Positions 3,047 to 19,348 of a stretch of 58,534 nucleotides of DNA are shown piece after piece; positions within the stretch are counted from its first letter, which is position 1, and every line of letters starts with the position of its first letter. Made by a program: the position numbers and the translations under genes. Source of the DNA: Candidatus Eiseniibacteriota bacterium. Lineage in GTDB: Bacteria; Eisenbacteria; RBG-16-71-46. Location of the stretch: NCBI GenBank assembly GCA_005893295.1, contig VBOY01000072.1, positions 1-58,534 of the forward strand. The letters are read 5' to 3'. The notes under the pieces were generated by a model. That model had not been told where the DNA came from and made no database searches. It worked only from the letters and a program-made list of their open reading frames with translations.

Positions 3047-3110
3047 GATGGAATGGGCGCGCCCGCGAGAGACGCCACGAGCGCGCCCACTCTACCAGGA
3101 CGACGCCGGG

Positions 3111-4637
3111 TCAGCGACCCTCGCGCCACGGGCGGCTGCGCGAGCCGTCGCCGCGCTCCGAATCGGAACGTCGTTTCTCTTCGTGGCGCCGCTCCTCGCG
3201 CGGAGGATCCGGCCTCGTGATCTCGCGCCGCGATTCGCCGTCACGACTCGGGCCACGCTCCGGACGGAGATCGCCGAGGTCGCGTCCCATCGGGATCCTT
3301 CTCTCTTCCGCGGGTATGCGTTCCATCCGGTCGCGTCCCCTGGGGACCCAGCGCTCTTCGGCGGGCACGCGCTCCAGCCGGTTGCGGCCCATCGGGACCC
3401 GTCTCTCTTGCGCGGGTGCGGGTTCGACTCGGTCCCGTCCCTCGGGCCGTGCGCCTTGGTTGGGTCGCAGCACCCGCCACGGCGGATCGGCGGCACGCGA
3501 TCCGGGGTCGGTCAGGTCATCGGGGCGGCGAGGGCGGAACCGTGGATCGTCCGATGGTTGTGGTCGTGGGTCCTTGCGGATCGGACGCACGCCATCGCGC
3601 ACCCGCTCGGAGCCTCGCGGCACCCACGCGAGCCCTCCTCGCACGCCACGCGTCGCGTCGCGTCGCGAGAAACCTGGAGGAGCCGGCGAATCATCCCCCC
3701 ATACGCCGCCGTTTCGGAACTTCGACGGAGGAACGTAGCCCGAAGGAGGGTCTGACCTGAAGCGAGTGAGCCGGCTCCCCCAAAGAGTGCTCCACCGCTT
3801 CCACCCGTCCCAAGAAGAATAGCACGTCCGGCTGGCAAGCAAGCCCCGATATCGGGGCGGGCAGCTCGGACGATAGACGTAATAGTAGTAGGGCACGAAC
3901 CCGTTCCAGTAGCTCGGCCCCCAGGCCCAGGCCCAATTGACCCGAAAGTCGATGGCACTACAGGTCGTGTAGTAGGGGTCGAAGCCGTCCCACCAGGCCC
4001 AGTGGTTGGGCCGGTGGCAGTCGTAGCACAGGTAGCGCGGGTAGCGGACCTGGTTATGGACGTAGTAGGAGACATAGGCGGTCGCGAAACCGCTCGGATC
4101 TTCCGGGTCCTCGAGCACCCGCCGTCGGATACGCTCCATGGCCACGAACGGGTCGCCGACGATCCGACCCTCCTGGGTCACGCCCTCTTCCTCGTCGTCC
4201 CCCTCGCCTTGGTACCCGATCTCGCCGGCCTGCGCATCGACGGGTCTCAAATACCACGGCAGGTTGCGGAACGGGCGCTCGGAGGCGATGCCCACAATGT
4301 ATCCCTCGCCCACTGGACCTTCCACGACCAGCTCGACGTCCGATCCCGCCGGCGGGATCGCGTAGCTGCGCCGTCCCTCGATGAAGCCACGGCTTCCCCG
4401 CTGGGGGAACAGGGCGTGCACGGCTCCCTCGGAGTCGATCTCGTAGACCAGCAGGTAGGCGTCATCCGAGGTCCGAGCCGTGATCCCGATCGTCTGGCCC
4501 GGCTGGTAGACGCCGTCCGCGCCACGGTCGGTCCACAGCTCGATGTCCAATCCTCGCGCGGGTGAAGCTTCGGCTCGGGAGGTGGGCGCAACTGCTGCCA
4601 CGAGAGCCACCACCAGCATTCCGCACGTCCTTCTCAT
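3111..4637 (-). CDS. Secreted DUF4384-like protein with a CYDCH/aromatic module and an Arg/Glu-rich repeat tail
   Basis: 508 aa with AAGGAAGG upstream of the ATG and a signal peptide. The N-terminal region (LWTDRGADGVYQPGQTIGI..DAYLLVYEIDSEGAVHALFP) resembles DUF4384. This is followed by YPRYLCYDCHRPNHWAWWDGFDPYYTTC and then 17-aa repeats. Confidence 0.6.
   Translation of the reverse strand: MRRTCGMLVVALVAAVAPTSRAEASPARGLDIELWTDRGADGVYQPGQTIGITARTSDDAYLLVYEIDSEGAVHALFPQRGSRGFIEGRRSYAIPPAGSDVELVVEGPVGEGYIVGIASERPFRNLPWYLRPVDAQAGEIGYQGEGDDEEEGVTQEGRIVGDPFVAMERIRRRVLEDPEDPSGFATAYVSYYVHNQVRYPRYLCYDCHRPNHWAWWDGFDPYYTTCSAIDFRVNWAWAWGPSYWNGFVPYYYYVYRPSCPPRYRGLLASRTCYSSWDGWKRWSTLWGSRLTRFRSDPPSGYVPPSKFRNGGVWGDDSPAPPGFSRRDATRGVRGGLAWVPRGSERVRDGVRPIRKDPRPQPSDDPRFRPRRPDDLTDPGSRAADPPWRVLRPNQGARPEGRDRVEPAPAQERRVPMGRNRLERVPAEERWVPRGRDRMERIPAEERRIPMGRDLGDLRPERGPSRDGESRREITRPDPPREERRHEEKRRSDSERGDGSRSRPWREGR
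3240..3440 (-). repeat. 51-bp (17-codon) tandem repeat, 3 full copies plus 1 partial, inside the 3' part of CDS 3111-4637
   Basis: The protein reads GRDRVEPAPAQERRVPM / GRNRLERVPAEERWVPR / GRDRMERIPAEERRIPM / GRDLGDLRPERGPSRD. The DNA copies lie at about 3390-3440, 3339-3389, 3288-3338 and 3240-3287. Confidence 0.8.
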
Positions 4638-4649
4638 CCCACACCTTCC

Positions 4650-5129
4650 TTACGGGCCTTCGTCGCGGGGCCGTTGCTCGGAATCCCTTCGCCCGCGCTT
4701 GCCCTGATGCTTCCTACCCCGTTCCGTCGCCGATCGCTCCGTGCGACGCTCGTTGCCGATCTCTGGTGCGCCGCCCGAGCGGCGCCATGATTCGTAGTCC
4801 CGCCCCTCCAGGTAACGGGGCTGCACCCGATATCCGGGTCGGTACCGATACCGGCCATAGTCCGGGTGGCTTTCCTTGATCCGCACGTAGCGCTCCCGGT
4901 AGAGGGCCACCGCCCCGGGGTAGTCGGCCCACCGATAGCGAAATCCGTAGGCAACGCACCAATCATAGTACGGATCGAAGAATCTGTAGCCGTGGCAGTC
5001 ATAGCAGAAGTAGCTGGGATGGGGTCGCGAGGCGACGCTGTAGCCGAGGAACACGCTCCGGTAGCCGGCGGCGCACCCGAGGAGGCCCGCCACCAGAGCC
5101 CCTGCCGCCACGGCAGTCGTCCAGCGCAC
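4650..5129 (-). CDS. Small lipoprotein with a CYDCH/aromatic module and a highly charged C-terminal tail
   Basis: 159 aa with a GTG start and GAGGAGG 6-7 nt upstream. Lipobox ..AGLLGC. The motif HPSYFCYDCHGYRFFDPYYDWC is paralogous to the module in 3111-4637. The tail is rich in R/E/K. Confidence 0.6.
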   Translation of the reverse strand: MRWTTAVAAGALVAGLLGCAAGYRSVFLGYSVASRPHPSYFCYDCHGYRFFDPYYDWCVAYGFRYRWADYPGAVALYRERYVRIKESHPDYGRYRYRPGYRVQPRYLEGRDYESWRRSGGAPEIGNERRTERSATERGRKHQGKRGRRDSEQRPRDEGP

Positions 5130-5139
5130 CCATTCCTCC

Positions 5140-5964
5140 TCACCGCACCCAGGCCAGCGGCCGGCCGCCGGCCCCCCGCGCCGGACGCGCCCGCAGCTCG
5201 GGATTCCCGGCCGCGGTTTGGTACGCCCAGTCGAACACCACTCGCGCTGGCTGCCCGAGCTGCGGAGCCACCAGGTCCGTCACGCGGAACTTGGCGTAAC
5301 GATCGTCGGCTGTCCAGACCACGTAGCAGTGCCCATCGATCAGCTCGACCGAGCCGCTCGGCGACCAACCCCCGCTGGGAGCGAAGTCGACCGCATCCAG
5401 GGAGCGGGCGTAGCCGGCGTCCTGGATGTCGACGTCGAGTGGCACGAACATCTGGTAGACCGACCCGTTGTAGCCGAAGAACATGTCGGTGGACGAATCG
5501 TCCCATCTCTGGACCGCCGCGGTCGAAAAGTCGTAGCCGCTTCCCGCGTCCTGGTCGAGGAAGTTCACCAGCGACCGGCCGAATCCTTCCGGGCGTGGCG
5601 TGTCGAACAGGATGTCCTCGGAGAGTTCGCTCTCGTTGCCGTGGCGATCGTAGGCGGTCACCCCGAAGTATCGAGTGACGCCGTTCAAGAGACCAGACAC
5701 TCGAAACGAGGTACCGGTGGTCGATCCGACCGGCTGGTATGCGCAGTCGGATCCGCGTGGGCAGGGCGCTACGTAGACCCGATAGCCGGCCACGTCGGGC
5801 TCGGTGTTGTCGAGCCAGTACACCCACACGTCTTGGTCACCCGTCACGGTGTAGACCCCGCGGGGAGGGGCCGGCGGAACGACGTCCCTCACGGAGACCG
5901 TGTCATCATCACATCCGGCCAACGTCAACGCCGCGGCAAATAGGAACGTCCACGTCGCGCGCAT
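5140..5964 (-). CDS. Lipoprotein with a fibronectin type III domain and an unassigned beta-rich C-terminal domain
   Basis: I chose the start at ATG 5964 (MRATWTFLFAAALTLAGC lipobox, GGAGG 8 nt upstream). The track ORF extends to 6180. The FN3-like segment reads PPAPPRGVYTVTGDQDVWVYWLDNTEPDVAGYRVYV...YFGVTAYDRHGNES. Confidence 0.65.
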   Translation of the reverse strand: MRATWTFLFAAALTLAGCDDDTVSVRDVVPPAPPRGVYTVTGDQDVWVYWLDNTEPDVAGYRVYVAPCPRGSDCAYQPVGSTTGTSFRVSGLLNGVTRYFGVTAYDRHGNESELSEDILFDTPRPEGFGRSLVNFLDQDAGSGYDFSTAAVQRWDDSSTDMFFGYNGSVYQMFVPLDVDIQDAGYARSLDAVDFAPSGGWSPSGSVELIDGHCYVVWTADDRYAKFRVTDLVAPQLGQPARVVFDWAYQTAAGNPELRARPARGAGGRPLAWVR

Positions 5965-6021
5965 GCCTCGAGCCTCCATGAATGGGCCGGGGAGCCGCCC
6001 GCACCACGAAAGCCGAAAACG

Positions 6022-6036
6022 GCAAGCCACGTGCCA
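6022..6036 (-). promoter_or_regulatory. Sigma-54 (-24/-12) promoter, perfect consensus
   Basis: The reverse strand reads TGGCAC-GTGGC-TTGC (GG-N10-GC). The expected transcription start is about 45-50 nt upstream of ATG 5964. Confidence 0.7.
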
Positions 6037-6340
6037 GGTTGGGCACGGAGAGGAGAGGCGAGAGCCACGTCCCCAACCACAACGGCAATCACGAGTTGCG
6101 GGGCTCGCAGAGGTCGTGGCGGTTCGCGGAACGGGCGCCGAGCGCTGCGGCGGCGATGCAGGTGTGCGGCGACACCACACTGCTCAAACAAGAGGACACC
6201 GGCCAAGTAGCTCGCGGCACCAGCCGGAACATCCCCCAGTGTCAGCCTATGCCACGTTTGACCGGTGTCTCACGCTTCGAAGCACGGCGAACCTGGACCC
6301 GATTCCCGGTCGTTCTAAACCACATGGTGCTACCGAACGG

Positions 6341-6718
6341 CTAGCCGGCGCTGCCGACACCCTGGTGATGGCAATCGTTCTGGCAGTCAATTTTGCCAGC
6401 GGTCAGCGCGTCTTTTGCCGCAGAGTGCCGAGTCGACTCGGCTTGCAGACAGTCGTTCTTTGCGTTGTTGTCCTCGATCAGCTGGCAGACTGCTACCTCG
6501 GCTGCGTGACGCTTTTGCTCCAGCTTGAACAGTAGATCGTACAGATCGTTGCAGTGCTTGATGCAGGTCGTGGGAGCGGCACGCGTCAGACCCACGCCGG
6601 TAAGGTTGTCGCCCACCATCGTGCACTGCGACAGGGTGAGCGAGACGACGCCGAGGACCGTTGCAAGCGCAACGAACACGACCGCACGGTAAATTCGGTT
6701 GGGGCTGGCATGCTGCAT
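6341..6718 (-). CDS. Small secreted Cys-rich helical protein (CX3C ... CX11C ... CX3C)
   Basis: I chose the start at ATG 6718 (GGAGGA 5 nt upstream). The track ORF extends to 6889. It has an N-terminal hydrophobic anchor and the motifs CIKHC, CQLIEDNNAKNDC and CQNDC. The region is visibly less GC-rich than its neighbours. Confidence 0.5.
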   Translation of the reverse strand: MQHASPNRIYRAVVFVALATVLGVVSLTLSQCTMVGDNLTGVGLTRAAPTTCIKHCNDLYDLLFKLEQKRHAAEVAVCQLIEDNNAKNDCLQAESTRHSAAKDALTAGKIDCQNDCHHQGVGSAG

Positions 6719-7149
6719 GAGTTCCTCCTTATGCGCGCAGGAGTCACGTACTTTTCCGCGATGGGCCCAACACCGTCGTTTTGATGTGCCGAGTAGGTCC
6801 TCCCCACACCCGTCTCCGCCAGCGCGTGGAATCGCCCTTGCGTCGAAGCTCGCTCGCAGGGGGAGTCGGTCGCGTCCGGGCGATCCCACGGATCCTGCGC
6901 CGAGGCGGTGACCCCGAGGTTTACAGACCGGATCTAGGAGTCCGAACCACAGGCGGCCGCCGTGCGCACGTCACGCGCAAACGGGTGGTCTCGAAAAGTC
7001 CCAGGCTAGCCGGTCGAACGGGCTGGTGCGCTGTCGAGATGACCGGGGCTCGTACCCTTCGTCCAGGGCCCGAAACGAGCCGGCTAGCCCAGATAAGAAC
7101 GCCTGGTTGCAGCGCTCTTGGAGGTCCCCCCCTCCGCGCAGGGCATTTC

Positions 7150-7164
7150 GCACTCGGCGTGCCA
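7150..7164 (-). promoter_or_regulatory. Candidate sigma-54 promoter
   Basis: The reverse strand reads TGGCAC-GCCGA-GTGC (GG-N10-GC spacing is correct, with one mismatch in the -12 box). It lies about 200 nt downstream of the activator gene stop and about 430 nt upstream of the next start codon (6718). Confidence 0.5.
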
Positions 7165-7367
7165 TCATTCGGACCGCAGGTGACAGTTCAAGAAACCGAT
7201 TGCCGCGCTTTGGGTTGCGCGGCCAGCCGCGATCGAGCGCGACGGCAGTGGGTGAGCATCGCGGACCAGATCACGAAACAAATATGACAATCCCGCCGAG
7301 CCTCGAGCTAACTCCTTTGGCTGAGCGGGGTTCGTTGTTAATCGGATTTACAGCGCCAATGACGATT

Positions 7368-10300
7368 CTATGACAGGTCGCTGGCAGTGCGCTCGGCAGC
7401 CCTGCGCTCGATCCGGAAACTTCGGATCTTGCTCAACAGGGTCGGATAGCTCAGACCCAGCTCGCGCGCTACGCGTGCCTTGTTCCAGCGGTTGCGCTCC
7501 AGCGATTCGCCAATCATTCGTCGCTCGAGGTTTGCGACGTTGTGGCGCAAGGTGCGCACCCTGCCCCTGTCCGCCTCGGCCGGATGCTTCTCCATCATCT
7601 CGGGAGGCAGCAAGCCGGGCCCCAGCGCGTCGCCCTCGTCGGCGAGCACCACCATGCGGCGCACCGTTTTGTCGAGCTCGCGCACATTGCCACGCCACTC
7701 GTAGATCATGAAGACCCGCATCACTTCGGGCAGGAACCCCTTCAGGGTCTTGTCCATCTGACGACTCGCGATCGCCAGGAAATGCTGGGCCAATACCGGA
7801 ATGTCCTCGCGCCGCTCGCGCAGCGCCGGGACGCGCACCGTGATGTCGTTGAGCCTGTAGTAGAGGTCCTCGAGGAAACGGCCTTGCTGGATGCGTTGGC
7901 GCAAGTCACAGCCGGTGGCGCAGATCACGCGCGAGTCGACGCGCTTGCTGCGGGTCGCGCCTACCGCGCGGATCTCGCCGCGGTCGAGCACGTGCAGCAG
8001 CTTGGCCTGGACCGACTCGGGGACTTTCTCGATCTCGTCGAGGAAGATCGTGCCTCCCTCGGCTTCCTCGAACAAGCCGGCCTTGTCCCGCACCGCGCCC
8101 GTGAAGGCACCATGCACGTGCCCGAACAGCTCGCTTTCGAGTAGCTGCTCTGGGATCGCGGCACAGTTGACGTGCAGGAACGGCCGCTCGCGACGGCTGG
8201 AGACCTCGTGAACCACTTGGGCGAGCAGGCCCTTGCCGGTGCCGGTCTCGCCCATGAACAGCACCGACGCCGGGCTGTCGCCGATCTTCGACAACAGGTG
8301 GAGGATGTCGGTCATCGCCCGCGACTGGCACACCACCCGATCCAGACCGGGGCTGGGAAGCAGCCGCTCGCGCAGCGCCTGGTTCTCCTTGAGCAGCATC
8401 GAGCGCTGCGCCTCGACGATCGCGACCGCCGCGGTGTTCGTGAACACCGCGAGCAGGTTGAGCTCGCGTTGCCGGAACGGCCCCAAGAGGTTGTCGCTCA
8501 GGCGATCGACGTAGACCACCCCCACGGATTGCGAGGGGAAGTTGAGCGGCACGCATACCAACGAGCCGACGCCCTCGAGATCGCCGCGGAGTGCGTGGAG
8601 GAACCGCGGGTCGGCCGCGACCCGGCTCGAGAACAGCGGGCCGCTCTCCCCGATCTTCGGGCCGGTGACGCGCTCGATCGAGCGCAGGATGCGCCGTGCG
8701 CGCTCGCGACCCATTCCATGCTGCGCCACGACTCCGAGCCGGACGCCGGCCGAGCTGAATGCCACGAAACCTCGATCCCCACCCGCGTTCTCGACCGCCA
8801 GCTTGACCGCTTGCGCCAACAGCCCATCCATGTCCGAGGCGTCGCGGAACAACCGGTTGGCCTCTTCGAGGGCCCGGAATTCGTTGCAGGTCGAAAGAGA
8901 CACGGCGACGTATTGCTGCTCGAGCTCGCGGCGCAGTGCTCCCGCCCGGTCCTCGGCCTTCTCGTCGCCGGCCTCGGGAAGCCAGGATTCCGCCTGCTCC
9001 AGGAGCCCGAGCGCGGCGTCGTAGTGCTCGCGCTCGGCCTCGAGCCGGGCCAGGTTGAGGATCGCTTCGGCCGCCGGCGCCAGGATGCCCAGCTCGCGGA
9101 ACAACACCGCGGCACGGCGCGCGGCTTCCGACACGGGCTCGAGGACCACTTGGACGCGCTGGCCGCCGGGCAGCAGCAGGACCAGCTCGGCCCACGCCGC
9201 CAGCGTAGTCGCCAGCTCGTAGGTCTCCTGAAGCTGCTCGAAGCATGCACAGGCGCTCTGCACCCTGGCTTCGAGCCGCCCCGCACCGCCCTGCAACGCC
9301 TCGATCCGGGCCAGGCCCCGCTCGGCCACGCCTTGCTCCAGACGATCGCCGAGGCGCCCGGCCAGCTGGGCACCGCTCATGAGGCGCGCCCGAGATTCCT
9401 CGACCCTACCGAGCTGGCCGAGCGCGATGCCGAGCCGGATCTCCAGCTCGCTCGCGAGGTCCCCTGCGGGGGCCAGCCGACGTGCTTCCTCCAAGGCCGG
9501 CTCCAGCAGGGCCACGGCGGCCCCGGGATGGCCGCGATCGATCTCGACCTCGGCCAGGAACTCACGTCCCAACAGGCTCTCGCGCACCGCCGAGACCCCG
9601 TCGGCCAGCGCGATCGCGCGGCGGAAATGCTCTTCGGCCGAGTCGAGCTGGCGGCGGCGGCGGGCGAGTCGTCCGATGGCCAAGAGCGCCGTGGCCTCGC
9701 CCTGCTGGTGGCCCAACTCCTGGGAAATCTGGAGCGAACGCCGAAAACTCTCCGCGGCGAGGTCCCATTGACCCAGGTTGAAGCGGATCAGACCCAAGTT
9801 CTGGTGGTGGCCGCGCATCCGGGAATAAAGCCCCGCGCGCTCGTCGATCTTGAGCGCTTGCTCGAGGAAACGCGTCGCTTCGCGCCACTCGCGAAGGTTC
9901 TTGTAGACCAGCCCGAGATTGTTGAGCGCCGTCACCAGGCCATCCGGATCGTCGATGCGACGGAAGGTGGCGGCGGCGTCTTGGAGCCATTCGATCGCCT
10001 CGGCGCTGCGGCCGAGGCGAGCCGCGCACAGCCCCATCGCCACCCCGACCTGCCCCACGGCCCGGTGCCGATCGGTGTTGCGCAGCACCTGGTAGGCGTA
10101 GCGCGCGTAGCGGCGAGCCTTACGGTAGAGGCCCAGCTCGACCAGCGAACGGGCCCGCTGGGCGGCCACTTCTGCCGCGCGCAGGCGGGGCTGGTCCAAG
10201 TCGCGGGCGACGCGTCGCGCGTCGGACAGGATGCGTAGGGCGGACTCGAAATCACCGCGGCGGTAGTGGGCTTCCGCCAATCGGAGCGTGATTCGGAATC

Positions 10301-13348: not shown

Positions 13349-14878
13349 ATGACGCTCCGCGCGCGTCTCGTGGTGGCGTTCCTGGCGCTGGCCCTGGTGC
13401 CGACCGCCGCGCTCACCTGGCTCACCCTCGATCGTCTCGACCGCACCATGAGGATGTGGAGCACGCCGGGGGTCGAGCACACGCTCCAGTCGGCTCTCGA
13501 GATGAGCAAGTCCCTGGTGACCCGCCTCGAAGCGACGGTGACCGCCCAGGCCCAGGACTGGGCCCAGGCGCTCCCTCCGGGGCCGCTGAATGAGCCCCGC
13601 CGCACCGCGATCCGCATCGGCCTGAGGACCGCCGGCCTCGACTTCGTCCAGGTCTATCAGCTGCATGGAGACGGCTGGCGCCTGGTCGAGGAGGTGCGCC
13701 CCCCGGGAGTGCTCGCCGCCGTCCCGCTCGACCTCTCTTCGGACCTGCCGGCCGCTCTGGCCTCGGATCGTCTGGTGCGGTCGCGGCGCGGAGCGCTGGC
13801 CGGCGTGTCGCCAGCCGATTCGGGACGAGCGGTCGTGGCGGGTCTCCACGTCAATCCCGATTTCTTCGACCAGATCCAACGGGTCGGCGAGGGTGTGGGC
13901 TTCTACCGCCGATTCTCCGTGGTGCGCGACGTGTCGCGAATCTACCTGCTGCTGCTGGTCTTCGCCGTGGCGTTGACGCTCTCGGTCCTGGCGTTGTGGG
14001 TGGCCACGGCGCTCGCGCGCGGCATGACGCGTCCCTTGCACCGGATCGAGGACGCGCTCGAGCGCGTTGCGGCCGGTGACCTCGAAGCCCGGGTCGCGCC
14101 TGCCGGCGCCGCCGAGATGCGCGCTCTGGCGCAGCGCTTCAACGCCATGACCGAGCGATTGGCGGGGGCGCGCCTCGCACTCCAGGAAGCCGAGCGCGAG
14201 GCGGCGTGGCGAGACGTGGCGCGCCGGCTGGCGCACGAGTTCAAGAACCTTTTGACGCCCATGTCGCTCTCGCTGCATCGTCTGCGGCGCCGCGCCGGGG
14301 CGGTGCCGGAGAACGAGCGCGTCGCGGTCGACGAGAGCTTGAAGGCGCTGTCGCAGAGCGTGGACCAGATGGCGCGCCTGGCCGAGCAGTTCTCGCAGTA
14401 CGCGCGGCTCCCCGAGCCGCGCTTCGAGCGGATCGACCTCGGCGAGGTGACGCGGGCGGCGGTGGCGCTGCATGAGCACGAGGGGATCACGATCGTGGTG
14501 ATGGGGGACGATCCGACGCCGGTGCGCGGGGACGGCTTGCTGTTGTCGCGCGCGATCCACAACTTGGTGCTCAACGCCTGCGAGGCGAGCGAGCCGGGGG
14601 CGACGGTCGAGCTGCGGGTCACGGCGCGGGGGGGCGAGGCCATGGTCGAAGTCCTGGACCGCGGCAGCGGGCTCGATCCCGAGGTCGAGCCTCGGCTGTT
14701 CGAACCCTACGTGAGCACGAAGCGGCGCGGCAGCGGTCTTGGCTTGTCGCTGGCGCGGGACATCGCCGGGCAGCACCGGGGCACGGTGCGGCTCGAGAAC
14801 CGGGAAGGCGGCGGGGCGCAGGCGCTGCTGCGACTGCCGCTCGACGAGGAGGGCGGCCCTTGGACCGCGAGCGCATGA
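13349..14878 (+). CDS. Membrane sensor histidine kinase (NtrY-like)
   Basis: 509 aa with two hydrophobic segments and a HAMP-like linker. H-box LAHEFKNLLTPM. ATPase boxes NLVLNACEA, DRGSGL and GSGLGLSLA. Confidence 0.85.
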   Translation: MTLRARLVVAFLALALVPTAALTWLTLDRLDRTMRMWSTPGVEHTLQSALEMSKSLVTRLEATVTAQAQDWAQALPPGPLNEPRRTAIRIGLRTAGLDFVQVYQLHGDGWRLVEEVRPPGVLAAVPLDLSSDLPAALASDRLVRSRRGALAGVSPADSGRAVVAGLHVNPDFFDQIQRVGEGVGFYRRFSVVRDVSRIYLLLLVFAVALTLSVLALWVATALARGMTRPLHRIEDALERVAAGDLEARVAPAGAAEMRALAQRFNAMTERLAGARLALQEAEREAAWRDVARRLAHEFKNLLTPMSLSLHRLRRRAGAVPENERVAVDESLKALSQSVDQMARLAEQFSQYARLPEPRFERIDLGEVTRAAVALHEHEGITIVVMGDDPTPVRGDGLLLSRAIHNLVLNACEASEPGATVELRVTARGGEAMVEVLDRGSGLDPEVEPRLFEPYVSTKRRGSGLGLSLARDIAGQHRGTVRLENREGGGAQALLRLPLDEEGGPWTASA

Positions 14879-16215
14879 GCCGACGAACGCGACTGGACGT
14901 GCTGGTGGTGGACGACGACCCGGACATCCGCCGCACCCTGCGGGGGGTGCTCGAAGACGAAGGGCACGCGGTGGCCGAGGCCGACAACGGCCCGCGGGCG
15001 CTGGCCGCGCTCGAGGGGCGGCGCTTCGACGTGGTGCTGCTGGACGTCAAGATGCCCGGCATGGACGGGCTCCAGGCGCTCGACATGATCCGCGAGCAGG
15101 CGCCGAGGACCGGCGTGATCATGGTCTCGGGCGAGAGCACGATCTCGACCGCGGTGCAGGCCATCAAGCGCGGTGCGTTCGACTTCATCGAGAAGCCGGT
15201 GGACCCGGACCAGCTGCTGGGCGTGCTCAGACAAGCGGCGCAGGTGACCGAGCTGAGAGAGAGCCCGGTCACGCACTCCGGCGAGCTGGGAATCGTCGGT
15301 CGCAGCCCGGCGATCGCCGCGCTGATCGCCGACATCAAGCGCGTCGCTCCCTCGAACGCCAAGGTGCTCATCACCGGCGAGAACGGCTCGGGCAAGGATC
15401 TGGTGGCCGAGGCGATCCACCGACTCTCGAAGCGGTCCGAGCGGCCGTTCGTCAAGCTCAACTGCGCGGCGATCCCCAAGGACCTGGTGGAAAGCGAGCT
15501 GTTCGGGCACGAAAAGGGGGCGTTCACGGGCGCGGGGCAGCGCAAGCAGGGCCGGCTCGAGCGCGCCGACGCAGGGACGCTGTTCCTCGACGAGATCGGC
15601 GACCTGTCGAGCGAGTCGCAGGCGAAACTGCTGCGCGCCATCGAGACCGGAGAGGTCGATCGCATCGGGGCCACGGAAACGATCCGCGTCGACGTGCGGA
15701 TCCTCTCGGCCACCAACAAGGATCTCGCGACGGCGATGGATTCGGGAGAGTTCCGTCGCGATCTCTACTACCGCCTGAGCGCGCTGCCGCTGCACGTGCC
15801 GCCGCTACGCGAGCGGCGCGCCGACGTGGCGCTGCTGGCGGAGCACTTCCTCGCCGCCTTCTGTGCCAGCGAAGGTCGGCCTCAGAAACGGCTCACCGCA
15901 GAGGCGTCCGCGCTGCTGGAAGAATACCGGTGGCCCGGCAACGTGCGCGAGCTGAAGAACCTCATGGAGCGAGCGGCGATCCTGGTGGACGGGCCCGAGG
16001 TGCGCGGGGAGGATTTGGCGGCGTGGCTCGAAGCCGGCCCGCCGACAACCGACGCCGCCGGGCTGCGTGGCGAGATCGAGCGTCGCGAGGCGGAGGCGAT
16101 CCGCAAGGCTCTCGAGGGGGCGGGTTGGAACGTGACCCAGGCGGCAGCGGGGCTCGGGATCGATCGCACCAACCTGCATCGAAAGATGCGCAAGTACGGT
16201 CTGGCGCGGCGCTGA
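14875..16215 (+). CDS. Sigma-54-dependent response regulator (NtrC/NtrX family)
   Basis: Receiver domain (VLVVDDDPDI ... LLDVKMPGMDG), AAA+ domain (GENGSGKD, GAFTGA, TLFLDEI) and a C-terminal HTH. ATG 14875 overlaps the kinase stop (ATGA). The track ORF starts at 14860. Confidence 0.85.
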   Translation: MSRRTRLDVLVVDDDPDIRRTLRGVLEDEGHAVAEADNGPRALAALEGRRFDVVLLDVKMPGMDGLQALDMIREQAPRTGVIMVSGESTISTAVQAIKRGAFDFIEKPVDPDQLLGVLRQAAQVTELRESPVTHSGELGIVGRSPAIAALIADIKRVAPSNAKVLITGENGSGKDLVAEAIHRLSKRSERPFVKLNCAAIPKDLVESELFGHEKGAFTGAGQRKQGRLERADAGTLFLDEIGDLSSESQAKLLRAIETGEVDRIGATETIRVDVRILSATNKDLATAMDSGEFRRDLYYRLSALPLHVPPLRERRADVALLAEHFLAAFCASEGRPQKRLTAEASALLEEYRWPGNVRELKNLMERAAILVDGPEVRGEDLAAWLEAGPPTTDAAGLRGEIERREAEAIRKALEGAGWNVTQAAAGLGIDRTNLHRKMRKYGLARR

Positions 16216-16288
16216 GCGGGTGGGCGCGCAGGTGGCGCGCACTCCACGCGCGAACGGCGGGAGATGGCGAGCGACATGATCCTGACGA

Positions 16289-16303
16289 TGGTACGAGGCT
16301 TGC
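16289..16303 (+). promoter_or_regulatory. Sigma-54 promoter
   Basis: TGGTAC-GAGGC-TTGC (GG-N10-GC), 48 nt upstream of ATG 16351 and directly downstream of the response-regulator gene. Confidence 0.6.
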
Positions 16304-16350
16304 GGAATTCGTGGGCGCTCCCGACCATCCGCCCACGGAGGACGAACCAC

Positions 16351-17643
16351 ATGAACTCCCTCGGCCGGCCTTCCACGATTCTCCTCCTCGCTCTCGCTCT
16401 TCTTTCCTGCGGGTCCTGGCGAAGCGGCCGCGCCGCTTCCGCCCCGGATACCTTGGCTTTCGAGCCGAGCCCTCCGGACACCGGCCTCTTCGAGCCGGTC
16501 GCTCCGGCCGACGCGTCTCTCGACGAGGAGTGGCTGCGCGCGGCCTGGGACGATCGTTTGCTGGACGAGCCCGAGGAGTGGGGCCGGCGCGGCGAGCGCG
16601 GCCGCCTCGACGCTCACCTCGACTACAACCGCGTCGATCCGCTGCGGGTGGGCGTGGGCTGGCAGGCGCAGAGGCCGACGACCATGCGGCCGCGGCTGGG
16701 AGCCCGTCTGGAGTACGCGACCGGGCGCGAGCGCGTGCTCTACGCGGTTCAGGTCGAGCAACCGTTGGCGCCGCGAGGGATGCTGGCGGTCGGGGTCACG
16801 ATGGGGCGGCGCACCGAGCACAATCCGCTCCAGCAGGTCTCCGACGTCGAGAACAGCCTGGCGCTGCTGTTCGGGCGCCAGGACTATCGGGACTACTTCG
16901 AGCGCGAGGGATTCGGAGGCTACGTCTCCTCGCGGCTCGGCGGCGTGACGACCGCGAGCGTGAGCCTGATGAGCGAGCGTGACCGCTCGATCCCCCGCTT
17001 CCCCGGCACCCGATCCTGGCTCCACCGCCAGCGCACGCTGCGGCCGAACCCGCCGATCGAGGAGGATCGGGCTCGCATCGCGGTCGTGCGTCTCGAGCGC
17101 TGGCTGCCGTCGTCCGGGCGCGCGCGCGCCGGATTCGCCCATCGCGTGGACTTCGAGACCGCCGGCCGTCGCCTCGGCGGTGACCAGCGGTACGACCGCG
17201 CGCTAGCCGATCTGCGCGCCCTGATTCGGACCTCCCCGGCGACCGCGCTCGCGTTGCGCGCCGTGGGCGGATCGTGCCTCGGTGGCGTCCTGCCGCCGCA
17301 GAATGAATTCGTGATCGGCGGACCCGACGGGCTGCGGGCGCATGCCACCGGCGCCTTCCGCGGCGATCAGGTGGCCTTGATGCAGGTCGAGTACAGCGTC
17401 GAGCTGTGGCACATGCGACGGGGCGTGTTCGAGGGAGGCCTGCACGCGATCGTCTTCGTCGATAGCGGGCGGGCATGGAACCACCCCGACCACGGATGGA
17501 ACGTCCAGGATCAGCGCATGGACGTGGATGGCGGCTTCGGCTTGGGCACGGCCGAGGACAACCTGCGCGTGTATTTCGCCCGCAACCTGCGCCAGCCCGA
17601 TTCGGGCTTCGTGGTCAGCGCGCGGCTGCAGCGGCCGTTCTAG
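16351..17643 (+). CDS. BamA/TamA-like (surface antigen D15 family) outer-membrane protein
   Basis: I chose the start at ATG 16351 (GGAGGA upstream; signal/lipobox-like LLALALLSCGS). The C-terminal beta-barrel signature reads ..VDSGRAWN.., VDGGFGLG and ends ..ARLQRPF. Confidence 0.55.
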   Translation: MNSLGRPSTILLLALALLSCGSWRSGRAASAPDTLAFEPSPPDTGLFEPVAPADASLDEEWLRAAWDDRLLDEPEEWGRRGERGRLDAHLDYNRVDPLRVGVGWQAQRPTTMRPRLGARLEYATGRERVLYAVQVEQPLAPRGMLAVGVTMGRRTEHNPLQQVSDVENSLALLFGRQDYRDYFEREGFGGYVSSRLGGVTTASVSLMSERDRSIPRFPGTRSWLHRQRTLRPNPPIEEDRARIAVVRLERWLPSSGRARAGFAHRVDFETAGRRLGGDQRYDRALADLRALIRTSPATALALRAVGGSCLGGVLPPQNEFVIGGPDGLRAHATGAFRGDQVALMQVEYSVELWHMRRGVFEGGLHAIVFVDSGRAWNHPDHGWNVQDQRMDVDGGFGLGTAEDNLRVYFARNLRQPDSGFVVSARLQRPF

Positions 17644-18304: not shown

Positions 18305-19318
18305 TCAGCGAGCCAGCGTGATCGCGACCGCGGGTTCGCTCGTGCCGCGCAGCCGGGCGAGCAGAACTCCCGGTGCCAGCGCGCGCCCGCCGGAGCTTAG
18401 GCCATCCCAGCGCCAGGTCCACCCGCCGCCGGCCGGCGCCGCGTCCGCAGTCGCCACCAGGCGCCCCGCGACGTCGAACAGGTCGAGCGGGCGAGCCTCA
18501 CCGCCCGAGCGCCGGAAGCTCAAGGCGCCGCGGGTGGGATTCGGGAACGCCACCAGCGAGGAGACCGCCGCGGGAGGATTGCCCGAAGCGAGGGCGAGCA
18601 AGAACGCTTCGAGGCCGGGCACCGAGCGGGGCGCGGCGATCGCCACGTTCTCGATCGTTCCGGACGCGTTGGCGAGCGCATCGCCGAACAGCGCCCGGAA
18701 GTCCTCGGCGAAGATCTCGTGGGGGCGGTCGGCGTGGCGGGCGCTCGGGCCGTACACCATGGGATCCGAGATGCCGCGCAGGACCCGGTAGCGCGACCAC
18801 AGGGACTCGGCCGCGTCCGGCATGAAGCCCAAGTGCACGACGTGCCCCAGCTCGTGAGTGAACTCGGCGTGCTGGTGCTCGGCGCTCAGTGGAACGACGC
18901 CGGGAGCGAGCAGGATCAGGCCTGGCCCCGCGGCGGATGCGAAGCCGGCGCGGCGTGGATACGGCAACAGGAACACTTCGGCCGACACGCCCGCGAGCGA
19001 GTAGCGAACCGCCGCCAGCGCCGCGCGCACCTCGTGCTCGTCGAACGGGTGAAACGCCCCGTCCCCCTGGTTCGAGATCGCCGGATCGGTCGGGCTCGTC
19101 ACCAGCTCGTACCGCGCGCCACCGGGAAGCACCAACCACAGGATCCCGTCTTCGTCGCGGCAGAAGTCGCGCAGAGTCTCTTCGGCGCCGTGGATCTCGA
19201 TGCCGTGGGCCGAGGCCCCGCTAGCGAGCTCGTCGGCGCGCGCGGCGAGAGCAGCGGTACAGATCGCGCCGAGGGCGGCGCCGCCGAGCGTGACGAGAGT
19301 GGCGAACGAGAGCCTCAT
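18305..19318 (-). CDS. Secreted HExxH zinc metallopeptidase-like protein with a FlgD-Ig/T9SS-type C-terminal domain
   Basis: 337 aa with a signal peptide and the motif HELGHVVH. The C-terminus reads AFPNPTRGALSFRR...LFDVAGRLV...WDGLSSGGRALAPGVLLARL. Confidence 0.6.
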   Translation of the reverse strand: MRLSFATLVTLGGAALGAICTAALAARADELASGASAHGIEIHGAEETLRDFCRDEDGILWLVLPGGARYELVTSPTDPAISNQGDGAFHPFDEHEVRAALAAVRYSLAGVSAEVFLLPYPRRAGFASAAGPGLILLAPGVVPLSAEHQHAEFTHELGHVVHLGFMPDAAESLWSRYRVLRGISDPMVYGPSARHADRPHEIFAEDFRALFGDALANASGTIENVAIAAPRSVPGLEAFLLALASGNPPAAVSSLVAFPNPTRGALSFRRSGGEARPLDLFDVAGRLVATADAAPAGGGWTWRWDGLSSGGRALAPGVLLARLRGTSEPAVAITLAR

Positions 19319-19333
19319 GCTCGCTCGTGAATC

Positions 19334-19348
19334 GCCACGAATGTGCCA
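19334..19348 (-). promoter_or_regulatory. Possible sigma-54 promoter (weak support)
   Basis: The reverse strand reads TGGCAC-ATTCG-TGGC (GG-N10-GC). However, the predicted start site is only about 4 nt from ATG 19318. Confidence 0.3.

Follow-up and report, generated by a model that had tools for sequence, protein, structure and literature searches.

A conserved sigma-54-type promoter, a structured RNA and an envelope operon with a CxxCH module in a candidate Eisenbacteria regulon

The stretch of DNA analysed here (the window) comprises 58,534 nucleotides of contig VBOY01000072.1 (assembly GCA_005893295.1) from a Candidatus Eiseniibacteriota (Eisenbacteria) bacterium, with a G+C content of about 67%. 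Its reverse strand carries an operon of three genes for exported proteins, here called g1, g2 and g3, which is preceded by a sigma-54-type promoter (P2) and, further upstream, by the gene for a sigma-54 activator, or bacterial enhancer-binding protein (bEBP). We propose that the locus is a phylum-conserved sigma-54 regulon consisting of the activator, two promoters (P1 and P2), a structured RNA and the envelope operon. The regulatory part of this proposal is very likely to be correct; the statement as a whole, with the roles proposed for the proteins, is probable, with considerable room for error. The first-pass annotation of this DNA, made from the sequence letters, had singled out the operon as a candidate for an undescribed system. 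This holds for the protein module shared by g2 and g3 and for the RNA, both of which are undescribed, but not for the sigma-54 regulation itself, which is of a known kind. The features on which the proposal turns are the following.

6022–6036, reverse strand: sigma-54-type promoter P2, TGGCACGTGGCTTGC
5140–5964, reverse strand: g1, lipoprotein; lipobox LAGC followed by DDD, FN3 domain and C-terminal beta-sandwich
4650–5129, reverse strand: g2, small lipoprotein; LLGC, C-Y-D-C-H...DPYYD-x-C module and basic tail
3111–4637, reverse strand: g3, secreted protein; signal peptide, DUF4384 domain (residues 43–122), linker helix, aromatic module (residues ~185–290) and cationic disordered tail of ~200 residues
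2126–3046, reverse strand: g4, outer-membrane beta-barrel protein of the PorV/PorQ family; signal peptide, starts 64 nt past the g3 stop codon
7368–10469, reverse strand: sigma-54 activator (bEBP); TPR repeats (~500 residues), GAF domain, AAA+ sigma-54 interaction domain and Fis-type helix-turn-helix (HTH)
6161–6176, no strand assigned: palindrome GGTGT-N6-ACACC, candidate upstream activator sequence ~135 nt upstream of the P2 −24 element

P2 was the sole exact occurrence of TGGCAC-N5-TTGC in the window, with 0.06 occurrences expected from dinucleotide-preserving shuffles, and its 3′ end lies 57 nt from the g1 start codon. Given the usual distance of 11–12 nt after the −12 GC, transcription would start at about 6010–6011, giving a leader of ~46 nt. 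A scan with one genome per species yielded 79 loci with a g3 relative, and promoters were compared over the 70 related loci that had at least 160 nt of upstream sequence. TGGCA[CT]-N5-TTGC was present upstream of g1 in 67 of these 70 loci, 34–83 nt before the start codon (median 54 nt), compared with a chance expectation of 0.0055 per locus. The match was exact in 48 loci and carried one mismatch in 19, 17 of which had the tolerated TGGCAT variant. At positions 1–5 and 12–15, the base was the same in every locus or in all but one, and spacer positions 7–11 varied freely. Two long relative contigs carried the exact motif 52–53 nt before g1 with differing spacers, and the motif was retained even where the proteins were only 35–45% identical (L070, L071 and L072, with one mismatch in L074 and L078). 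Because the motif is kept in relatives while its spacer is free to vary, sigma-54 control of the g1 operon is strongly supported, as is the reading of P2 as a genuine conserved promoter rather than a chance match; as a phylogenetic footprint, P2 is as strong as promoter evidence obtained in silico gets. The first-pass annotation had reported the motif and proposed RpoN-type control, and both are borne out: the −24/−12 elements are kept at the same place across relatives, with an activator gene adjoining in nearly all of them.

The activator translation matched the Pfam families TPR_12, GAF, Sigma54_activat (E 1.6e-63) and HTH_8 and contains the GAFTGA loop, in agreement with its first description as a TPR-GAF sigma-54 activator encoded upstream on the same strand. 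In most Eisenbacteria loci covering the upstream flank, an activator 60–79% identical to it was found at the same position. A sigma-54 activator gene adjoined g1–g3 in nearly all loci; the most distant loci had one of a different type. In L074 and L081, the g1–g3 pair was followed by a PAS/GAF histidine kinase gene (Pfam) and then by an open reading frame (ORF) with an N-terminus like a response-regulator receiver; the latter ORF of L081, which was outside the Pfam scan, was matched by the window activator in tblastn.

The palindrome GGTGT-N6-ACACC is a good candidate for the binding site of this activator. Its pattern matched four times in the window, compared with 0.33 expected, and it was exact at the equivalent position in ~30 loci, with a consensus visible in the alignment of the spacer between the activator gene and g1 (alignment A5). 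It sits between P2 and domain C of the structured RNA described below; in L071, a copy instead precedes the RNA promoter by ~145 nt. A second copy of the palindrome lies inside the activator gene (8433–8448). Just past the activator stop codon, an AT-rich block of the form CT(G/A)TAAA..TT.ACAACGAA.CCCGC was observed in the window (7290–7345, reverse strand) and in L001 (7810–7850), and L071 had only a looser AT-rich stretch at this position (8125–8150); the block could be a site of the integration host factor (IHF) type or a promoter element.

The first-pass annotation had placed the activator gene 1.4 kb upstream of the operon. The position stands, but the interval turned out to contain a second promoter and a structured RNA, and alignment of the spacer between the activator gene and g1 across loci revealed several conserved blocks. 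The features of this interval are as follows.

7150–7164, reverse strand: second sigma-54-type promoter P1, TGGCACGCCGAGTGC, differing from the consensus at one position; precedes the structured RNA
6998–7142, reverse strand: structured RNA domain A; invariant CGGAGGGGGGGACCUCCA hairpin, variable hairpin and long closing stem around invariant AGGGUACGAGCCCC
6185–6272, reverse strand: structured RNA domain C; long stem-loop with invariant apical CACUGGGGGAUGU and U-rich tail
6341–6718, reverse strand: orfS, between domains A and C; 125-residue cysteine-rich protein with a lipoprotein-signal-like N-terminus

In P1, GGCA...TGC was invariant in all 51 aligned loci, with a varying spacer. Domain A was detected by nhmmer in 60 loci. 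Of its cells, 95.3% were paired, compared with at most 52% when partners were slid, and compensatory change was seen in 83 cells compared with 25.6 in shuffles, none of 500 shuffles reaching 83. Its covariance model found a single copy in the window and gave weak syntenic matches in the distant loci L071 and L072; the L071 sequence follows the same plan, with TGGCACAATCAGTGC followed by a related hairpin and closing stem. Domain C was detected by nhmmer in 47 loci, with 90.9% of cells paired compared with at most 43.5% when slid, compensatory change in 13 pairs (a value reached by one of 500 shuffles) and a folding z-score of −3.3; it looks like a terminator. No match to Rfam 15 was found at E≤1 in positions 5900–7500, and across the whole window only one tRNA reached the Rfam gathering score. 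By these comparisons, the two-domain element is a covariation-supported structured RNA that was previously undescribed.

Domains A and C are ~100 nt apart in relatives, and ~700 nt are inserted between them in the window. This insertion, seen only in this genome, holds the lineage-specific orfS, which has a strong Shine-Dalgarno (SD) sequence (AAGGAGG) before its ATG at 6718 and coding-like G+C contents at the three codon positions (0.63/0.42/0.75). Most neighbouring genes exceed it at the third position, suggesting that orfS was acquired recently. The protein matched no Pfam family. We also considered orfS, in this case with the coordinates 6341–6889, as a conserved part of the system and rejected it, as no homologue was found in any of 81 loci.

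The genes g1, g2, g3 and g4 all lie on the reverse strand, in that order downstream of P2, with start codons at 5964 (ATG), 5129 (GTG), 4637 (ATG) and 3046 (ATG) and intergenic gaps of 10, 12 and 64 nt. The g1 stop codon (TGA) is overlapped by the SD sequence of g2 (GAGGAGG), and the g2 stop codon (TAA) by that of g3 (AAGGAAGG). These coordinates, gaps and overlaps are as originally annotated. All four products carry export signals by sequence; an envelope location is therefore reasonable, in keeping with the periplasmic or outer-membrane placement first suggested for them.

The closest homologues of g1 and g3 were 58–81% identical and, where the source was named, came from Candidatus Eisenbacteria. 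Among the 79 loci, those with a named taxon were mostly metagenome-assembled genomes (MAGs) of Eisenbacteria; a few were labelled as other phyla, yet had the same gene order. Three complete Eisenbacteria chromosomes, OY970178.1, OY970342.1 and CP070702.1, also have the locus. Those labelled as other phyla included L007, L010, L018, L053, L057, L076 and L077, labelled Limnocylindria, Udaeobacter, Saccharimonadaceae, Methylomirabilota, Verrucomicrobiia or Gammaproteobacteria, in which the gene order was that of Eisenbacteria and g3 identity was 49–61% (L076: 76% over a fragment); these are probably mis-binned contigs. In L076 (8500–11700), the matches to g1, g2 and g3 were broken up and fused into aberrant ORFs, which looks like the result of frameshift errors in long-read assembly and not like true pseudogenes. 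Two long relative contigs showed the order RlmN, Ppx/GppA, small ORF, TPR-GAF activator, ~0.9-kb gap, g1, (g2), g3, PorV-like gene and, on the opposite strand, metallophosphoesterase, and the window gene order matched that of both.

Gene pairing was counted over the 75 loci that held both g1 and g3. In all 75, including those with changed flanks, g1 immediately preceded g3 or, in the 27 loci with g2, was followed by g2 and then g3. In L081, a DUF3108 gene preceded the g1–g3 pair. The three-gene operon first proposed is thus upheld for g1 and g3, but not for g2: judged from these neighbourhoods, the conserved core is g1 and g3, to which g2, a paralogue of the g3 module, is accessory.

The first description of g1 as an FN3-domain lipoprotein is supported by its LAGC lipobox and by its predicted fold. 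The FN3 match itself was below the Pfam gathering threshold (18 bits versus 25, E 0.003). The AlphaFold model of g1 had a predicted local distance difference test score (pLDDT) of 86.3 and a predicted template modelling score (pTM) of 0.76, and in Foldseek it superposed on single FN3 domains with a template modelling score (TM) of ~0.75 and a root-mean-square deviation of 2.6–3 Å. The whole chain resembled 4ei0, a DUF4466 lipoprotein of unknown function from Parabacteroides, and the Foldseek search of the g1 model gave no functional lead. For the C-terminal domain, the HmuY haemophore family was considered and rejected (15.6 bits versus 27 in Pfam, over 40 residues only).

The small protein g2, with its LLGC lipobox, matched no Pfam or NCBIfam family. 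It shares the CYDCH...FDPYY module with g3 (BLASTP E 6e-9), as had been noted when it was first described as a CYDCH-module lipoprotein. In g3, the DUF4384 profile (PF14326) was matched over all of its 81 positions (1–81) with 53.9 bits (gathering threshold 27, E 1.9e-14), so that the signal peptide, the DUF4384-like domain, the CYDCH module and the repeats originally ascribed to g3 are all present. Elsewhere, DUF4384 is an Ig-like sandwich found in an accessory role in orthocaspases and Ser/Thr kinases, and the literature on it holds accessory-domain mentions only, with no function reported. The repeats lie in the g3 tail.

3278–3446, reverse strand: tandem repeat of 51 nt (17 residues), 3.3 copies, in the g3 tail (Tandem Repeats Finder score 177)

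The CYDCH of g2 and g3 is a CxxCH motif of the haem c type. Across homologues, the module consensus was Y-P-R-x-x-C-x-[DE]-C-H...D-P-Y-x3-C, and eight residues of g3 (Y199, P200, C204, C207, H208, P221, Y222 and C226) were invariant down to 27% identity. Each of the 41 g3 homologues examined had C-x-x-C-H. In alignment A4 (17 sequences), the second cysteine was preceded by Asp in 16 sequences and by Glu in one. The fourth cysteine found in core Eisenbacteria, C259, was not conserved. The paralogue g2 keeps C-Y-D-C-H-G...D-P-Y-Y-D-x-C. The module is predicted to be beta-rich, and ~29% of its residues are aromatic. When residues 180–300 were compared with 1.84 billion representative proteins, 68 matches were obtained at E≤0.001, mostly to the module at a g3-like position; because so few were found among so many proteins, the module family is, as far as sequence searches reach, small and restricted to the phylum.

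The g3 tails were 60–250 residues long, variable in sequence and proline-rich in most homologues. Their net charge was positive in all 41 examined (+7 to +45, median +14). In relatives of lower G+C, lysine takes the place of arginine in the tail, which argues that charge, and not sequence, is under selection.

The first-pass annotation had found no assignable function for the operon. Searches against PDB, Pfam, NCBIfam, PADLOC and Foldseek likewise returned nothing specific; the PADLOC defence-system library gave no match, and Foldseek with the low-confidence g3 model gave generic Ig folds, with nothing at E≤0.001.

The gene g4, first described as that of a PorV-like outer-membrane protein 64 nt downstream of g3, passed the NCBIfam model of the PorV/PorQ family (NF033709, 103.9 bits, cut-off 90). 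It was below the equivalog cut-offs of PorQ (74.4 versus 220), PorV (20 versus 250) and PorV2 (35 versus 325). A Pfam match to PorV among the window proteins was below threshold and was not used. In core Eisenbacteria, g4 follows g3. In L070 and L072, extra genes lie between the two, and in L070 one of them encodes an M6 peptidase with a C-terminal domain of the type IX secretion system (T9SS) type. A separate sigma-54 promoter for g4 was considered and rejected, since no motif was found upstream of it in 57 of 59 loci. The short gap between g3 and g4 holds one further feature.

3051–3092, reverse strand: 18-bp GC-rich hairpin between g3 and g4, likely terminator or attenuator

The hairpin region (81 nt) folded at −47.1 kcal/mol (z −4.2), and by inspection a comparably long hairpin was present in most of 55 related loci, without conservation of its sequence. 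The hairpin is likely a terminator or attenuator that lacks a U-tract. On that reading, g1–(g2)–g3 would be a tightly coupled unit and g4 would be expressed at a different level. From these neighbourhoods, g4 lies outside the ancient core.

A second sigma-54 system was observed at 13349–16303 (forward strand), with a HAMP histidine kinase gene (13349–14878) and a response-regulator sigma-54 activator gene (14860–16215). A sigma-54 motif with one mismatch, TGGTACGAGGCTTGC, lies at 16289–16303 (forward strand), at the start of an ORF (16264–17643) with weak Omp85/DUF5686 similarity. Another sigma-54-like motif with one mismatch, TGGCACATTCGTGGC, lies at 19334–19348 (reverse strand), 16 nt upstream of the longest ORF at 18305–19318 (reverse strand). 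It is too near the annotated start for a promoter; either the true start is further downstream or the match is due to chance.

Taken together, the locus could work as follows. The activator would sense a signal, either a ligand or a partner, through its GAF or TPR part, bind the GGTGT-N6-ACACC palindrome and open sigma-54 holoenzyme complexes at both P2 and P1. P1 would drive a structured RNA of ~350 nt, or ~1 kb in the window owing to the inserted ORF, and P2 would drive the operon, in which g1, g2 and g3 are packed tightly enough for translational coupling. The products would assemble in the periplasm at the outer membrane, with g1, and g2 where present, anchored by lipid. To this assembly g3 would contribute an Ig-like domain for binding, a module that holds a cofactor, and a long, flexible tail of positive charge that may contact anionic envelope polymers. 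The cofactor site, formed by C-x-[DE]-C-H and the distal cysteine, would most likely carry covalent haem c and otherwise zinc. In core Eisenbacteria, the g4 barrel, whose expression level would differ owing to the hairpin, is a probable docking partner in the outer membrane. Physiologically, the locus probably serves a signal-induced redox or structural change of the envelope rather than metabolism.

Several observations weigh against this proposal. No convincing sigma-54 motif was found upstream of g1 in L075 and L081 (best candidates with three mismatches), and L080 had only a candidate with two mismatches. The 58.5-kb window contains no RpoN box; its two activator genes imply that rpoN exists in the genome. 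Synteny within the phylum spans more than 15 kb, so that neighbouring genes in close relatives say little about a functional link. The CxxCH module was poorly modelled (pLDDT ~35–60) in an AlphaFold prediction of g3 that was built on 24 homologues, had a mean pLDDT of 48 and was usable only for the DUF4384 sandwich. The g3 profile met only low-complexity noise among PDB sequences, and the module matched no cytochrome or zinc-finger family in Pfam or NCBIfam. The module alignments showed no second conserved histidine or methionine as the usual distal haem ligand. Finally, g4 was absent from the g1–g3 neighbourhood in L071, L074, L080 and L081, which makes its partnership uncertain.

What the proteins do can be read in more than one way. 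In one reading, g2 and g3 would be new exported monohaem c-type cytochromes with the downstream cysteine as distal ligand, forming an inducible electron-transfer or redox-sensing module. The adjacency of cysteine and histidine in CxxCH is the signature of covalent haem c attachment, and a third cysteine as distal ligand has precedent in His/Cys-ligated haems. The motif is invariant in the g3 homologues and in the g2 family, both proteins carry Sec-type export signals by sequence, a beta-barrel gene adjoins g3, and the number of invariant cysteines is odd: with three of them and one histidine, disulfides cannot account for all. According to one report (PMC9769843), Cyc2 homologues and cytochrome c oxidase are encoded in Eisenbacteria MAGs, which makes c-type cytochrome maturation plausible in this phylum. 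Besides the missing family match, this reading has to contend with a beta-rich, highly aromatic module unlike typical class I cytochromes, with a single haem per protein beside a small PorV-type barrel, unlike known porin–cytochrome conduits, and with a window in which no WWD motif of cytochrome c maturation proteins, and hence no maturation gene, was seen. We regard it as possible, at somewhat less than an even chance. A conduit of the Mtr or Cyc2 type was rejected on the grounds of one CxxCH per protein and the small barrel. A stronger version, in which g2 and g3 are new Eisenbacteria-restricted exported monohaem c-type cytochromes that make up an inducible outer-membrane redox module with g1, and in which one TPR-GAF activator induces this module together with a new regulatory RNA under sigma-54 control, is tentative and unlikely to hold in every part. 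The same three cysteines and one histidine, exactly the number present among the invariant residues, could instead form a Cys3His zinc or metal knot (C-x2-C-H...C) in a small aromatic domain, and the proteins would then be scaffolds or tethers whose cationic tails connect peptidoglycan or another anionic polymer with the outer membrane. Tails that always stay positive, are mostly proline-rich and are free to vary in sequence fit this well, as do the FN3 and beta-sandwich folds of g1, which are common in adhesion or scaffold proteins, and the Ig-like sandwich of DUF4384 with its accessory role. Yet an adjacent cysteine and histidine seldom ligate the same zinc ion, Pfam gave no zinc-finger match, and the tails have no candidate polymer; we consider this structural role rather doubtful, if credible.

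The remaining explanations are less probable. If g4 were a PorV/PorQ paralogue working as a T9SS accessory, g1–g3 could be its surface-attached partners or cargo-handling factors. This would agree with the family match of g4, with the PorV-like genes that adjoin proteins with T9SS-type C-terminal domains in the distant loci L070, L071 and L078, and with the acidic residues after the lipidated cysteine of g1 (C-DDD), which we take to resemble the surface lipoprotein export signal of Bacteroidota. It is made improbable by the absence of a C-terminal sorting domain (Por_Secre_tail) from g1–g3, such domains being found only in the extra genes of L070 and L071, by the failure of g4 at the PorV and PorQ equivalog cut-offs, by the lack of g4 beside g1–g3 in distant loci including L074, L080 and L081, and by the lack of T9SS core genes among the neighbouring genes scanned (1–17.6 kb). 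The P2 motif could also be incidental: transcription of the operon would then begin at a sigma-70-type promoter that has gone unrecognised, or would read through from upstream, and the terminator-like hairpin of the upstream RNA could let some of this read-through pass. The conservation of the −24/−12 bases around a free spacer, far above the chance expectation, and the lack of any sigma-70-like site near g1 in our search make this very improbable.

The proposed sigma-54 regulon resembles classical bEBP regulons such as PspF–pspABCDE and NorR–norVW in its −24 GG/−12 GC promoter, in the activator gene beside its target, in the AAA+ activator with GAFTGA and Fis-type HTH, and in a palindromic upstream site, here a candidate at about −135; the GAF sensor domain is shared with NorR, NifA and FhlA. 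In contrast to these regulons, TPR repeats make up ~500 residues at the N-terminus of the activator, no target gene is related to those of characterised sigma-54 regulons, and the activator gene is followed by two sigma-54-type promoters in tandem, the first ahead of the RNA and the second ahead of the operon. Sigma-54-dependent small RNAs beside activator genes are known in CbrB–CrcZ of Pseudomonas, LuxO–Qrr of Vibrio and Nla19–Pxr of Myxococcus. The window RNA is like these in having its own sigma-54-type promoter directly downstream of the activator gene and in being conserved within its clade, but it has no sequence or Rfam relationship to them, its conserved motifs are G-rich (GGAGGGGGGGACCUCC, CACUGGGGGAUGU), and a lipoprotein ORF is inserted inside it.

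Among the envelope proteins, g4 shares with PorV/PorQ of the T9SS the family model and a signal peptide, and related loci hold T9SS-type C-terminal domains; unlike those proteins, it stays under the PorV/PorQ/PorV2 equivalog cut-offs, in an operon without T9SS core genes or sorting domains. Like the porin–cytochrome modules Cyc2, MtrCAB and PioAB, the locus encodes exported CxxCH proteins beside an outer-membrane beta-barrel. It differs from them in that CxxCH occurs once each in g2 and g3, inside an unrelated module that is beta-rich and aromatic, that the barrel is a small, unfused one of the PorV/FadL type, and that the operon has no multihaem proteins. The DUF4384 domain of g3 matches the full-length profile known from orthocaspases and Ser/Thr kinases, but here it is the N-terminal domain of a secreted protein and is joined to the CxxCH module and the cationic tail.

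Eisenbacteria are a widespread phylum of soil and sediment without a cultured member, and our literature search found nothing on their regulation. At this locus, a sigma-54 circuit can be read from sequence alone and is conserved phylum-wide; it runs from the activator and its candidate binding site through two promoters to the RNA and the envelope operon. The regulatory logic is ordinary. What the locus yields beyond it is a protein module with an invariant haem-type CxxCH outside any described family, and a structured RNA that shows strong covariation and belongs to no Rfam family, and each part is open to direct test by heterologous expression, in-vitro transcription or soil metatranscriptomes.

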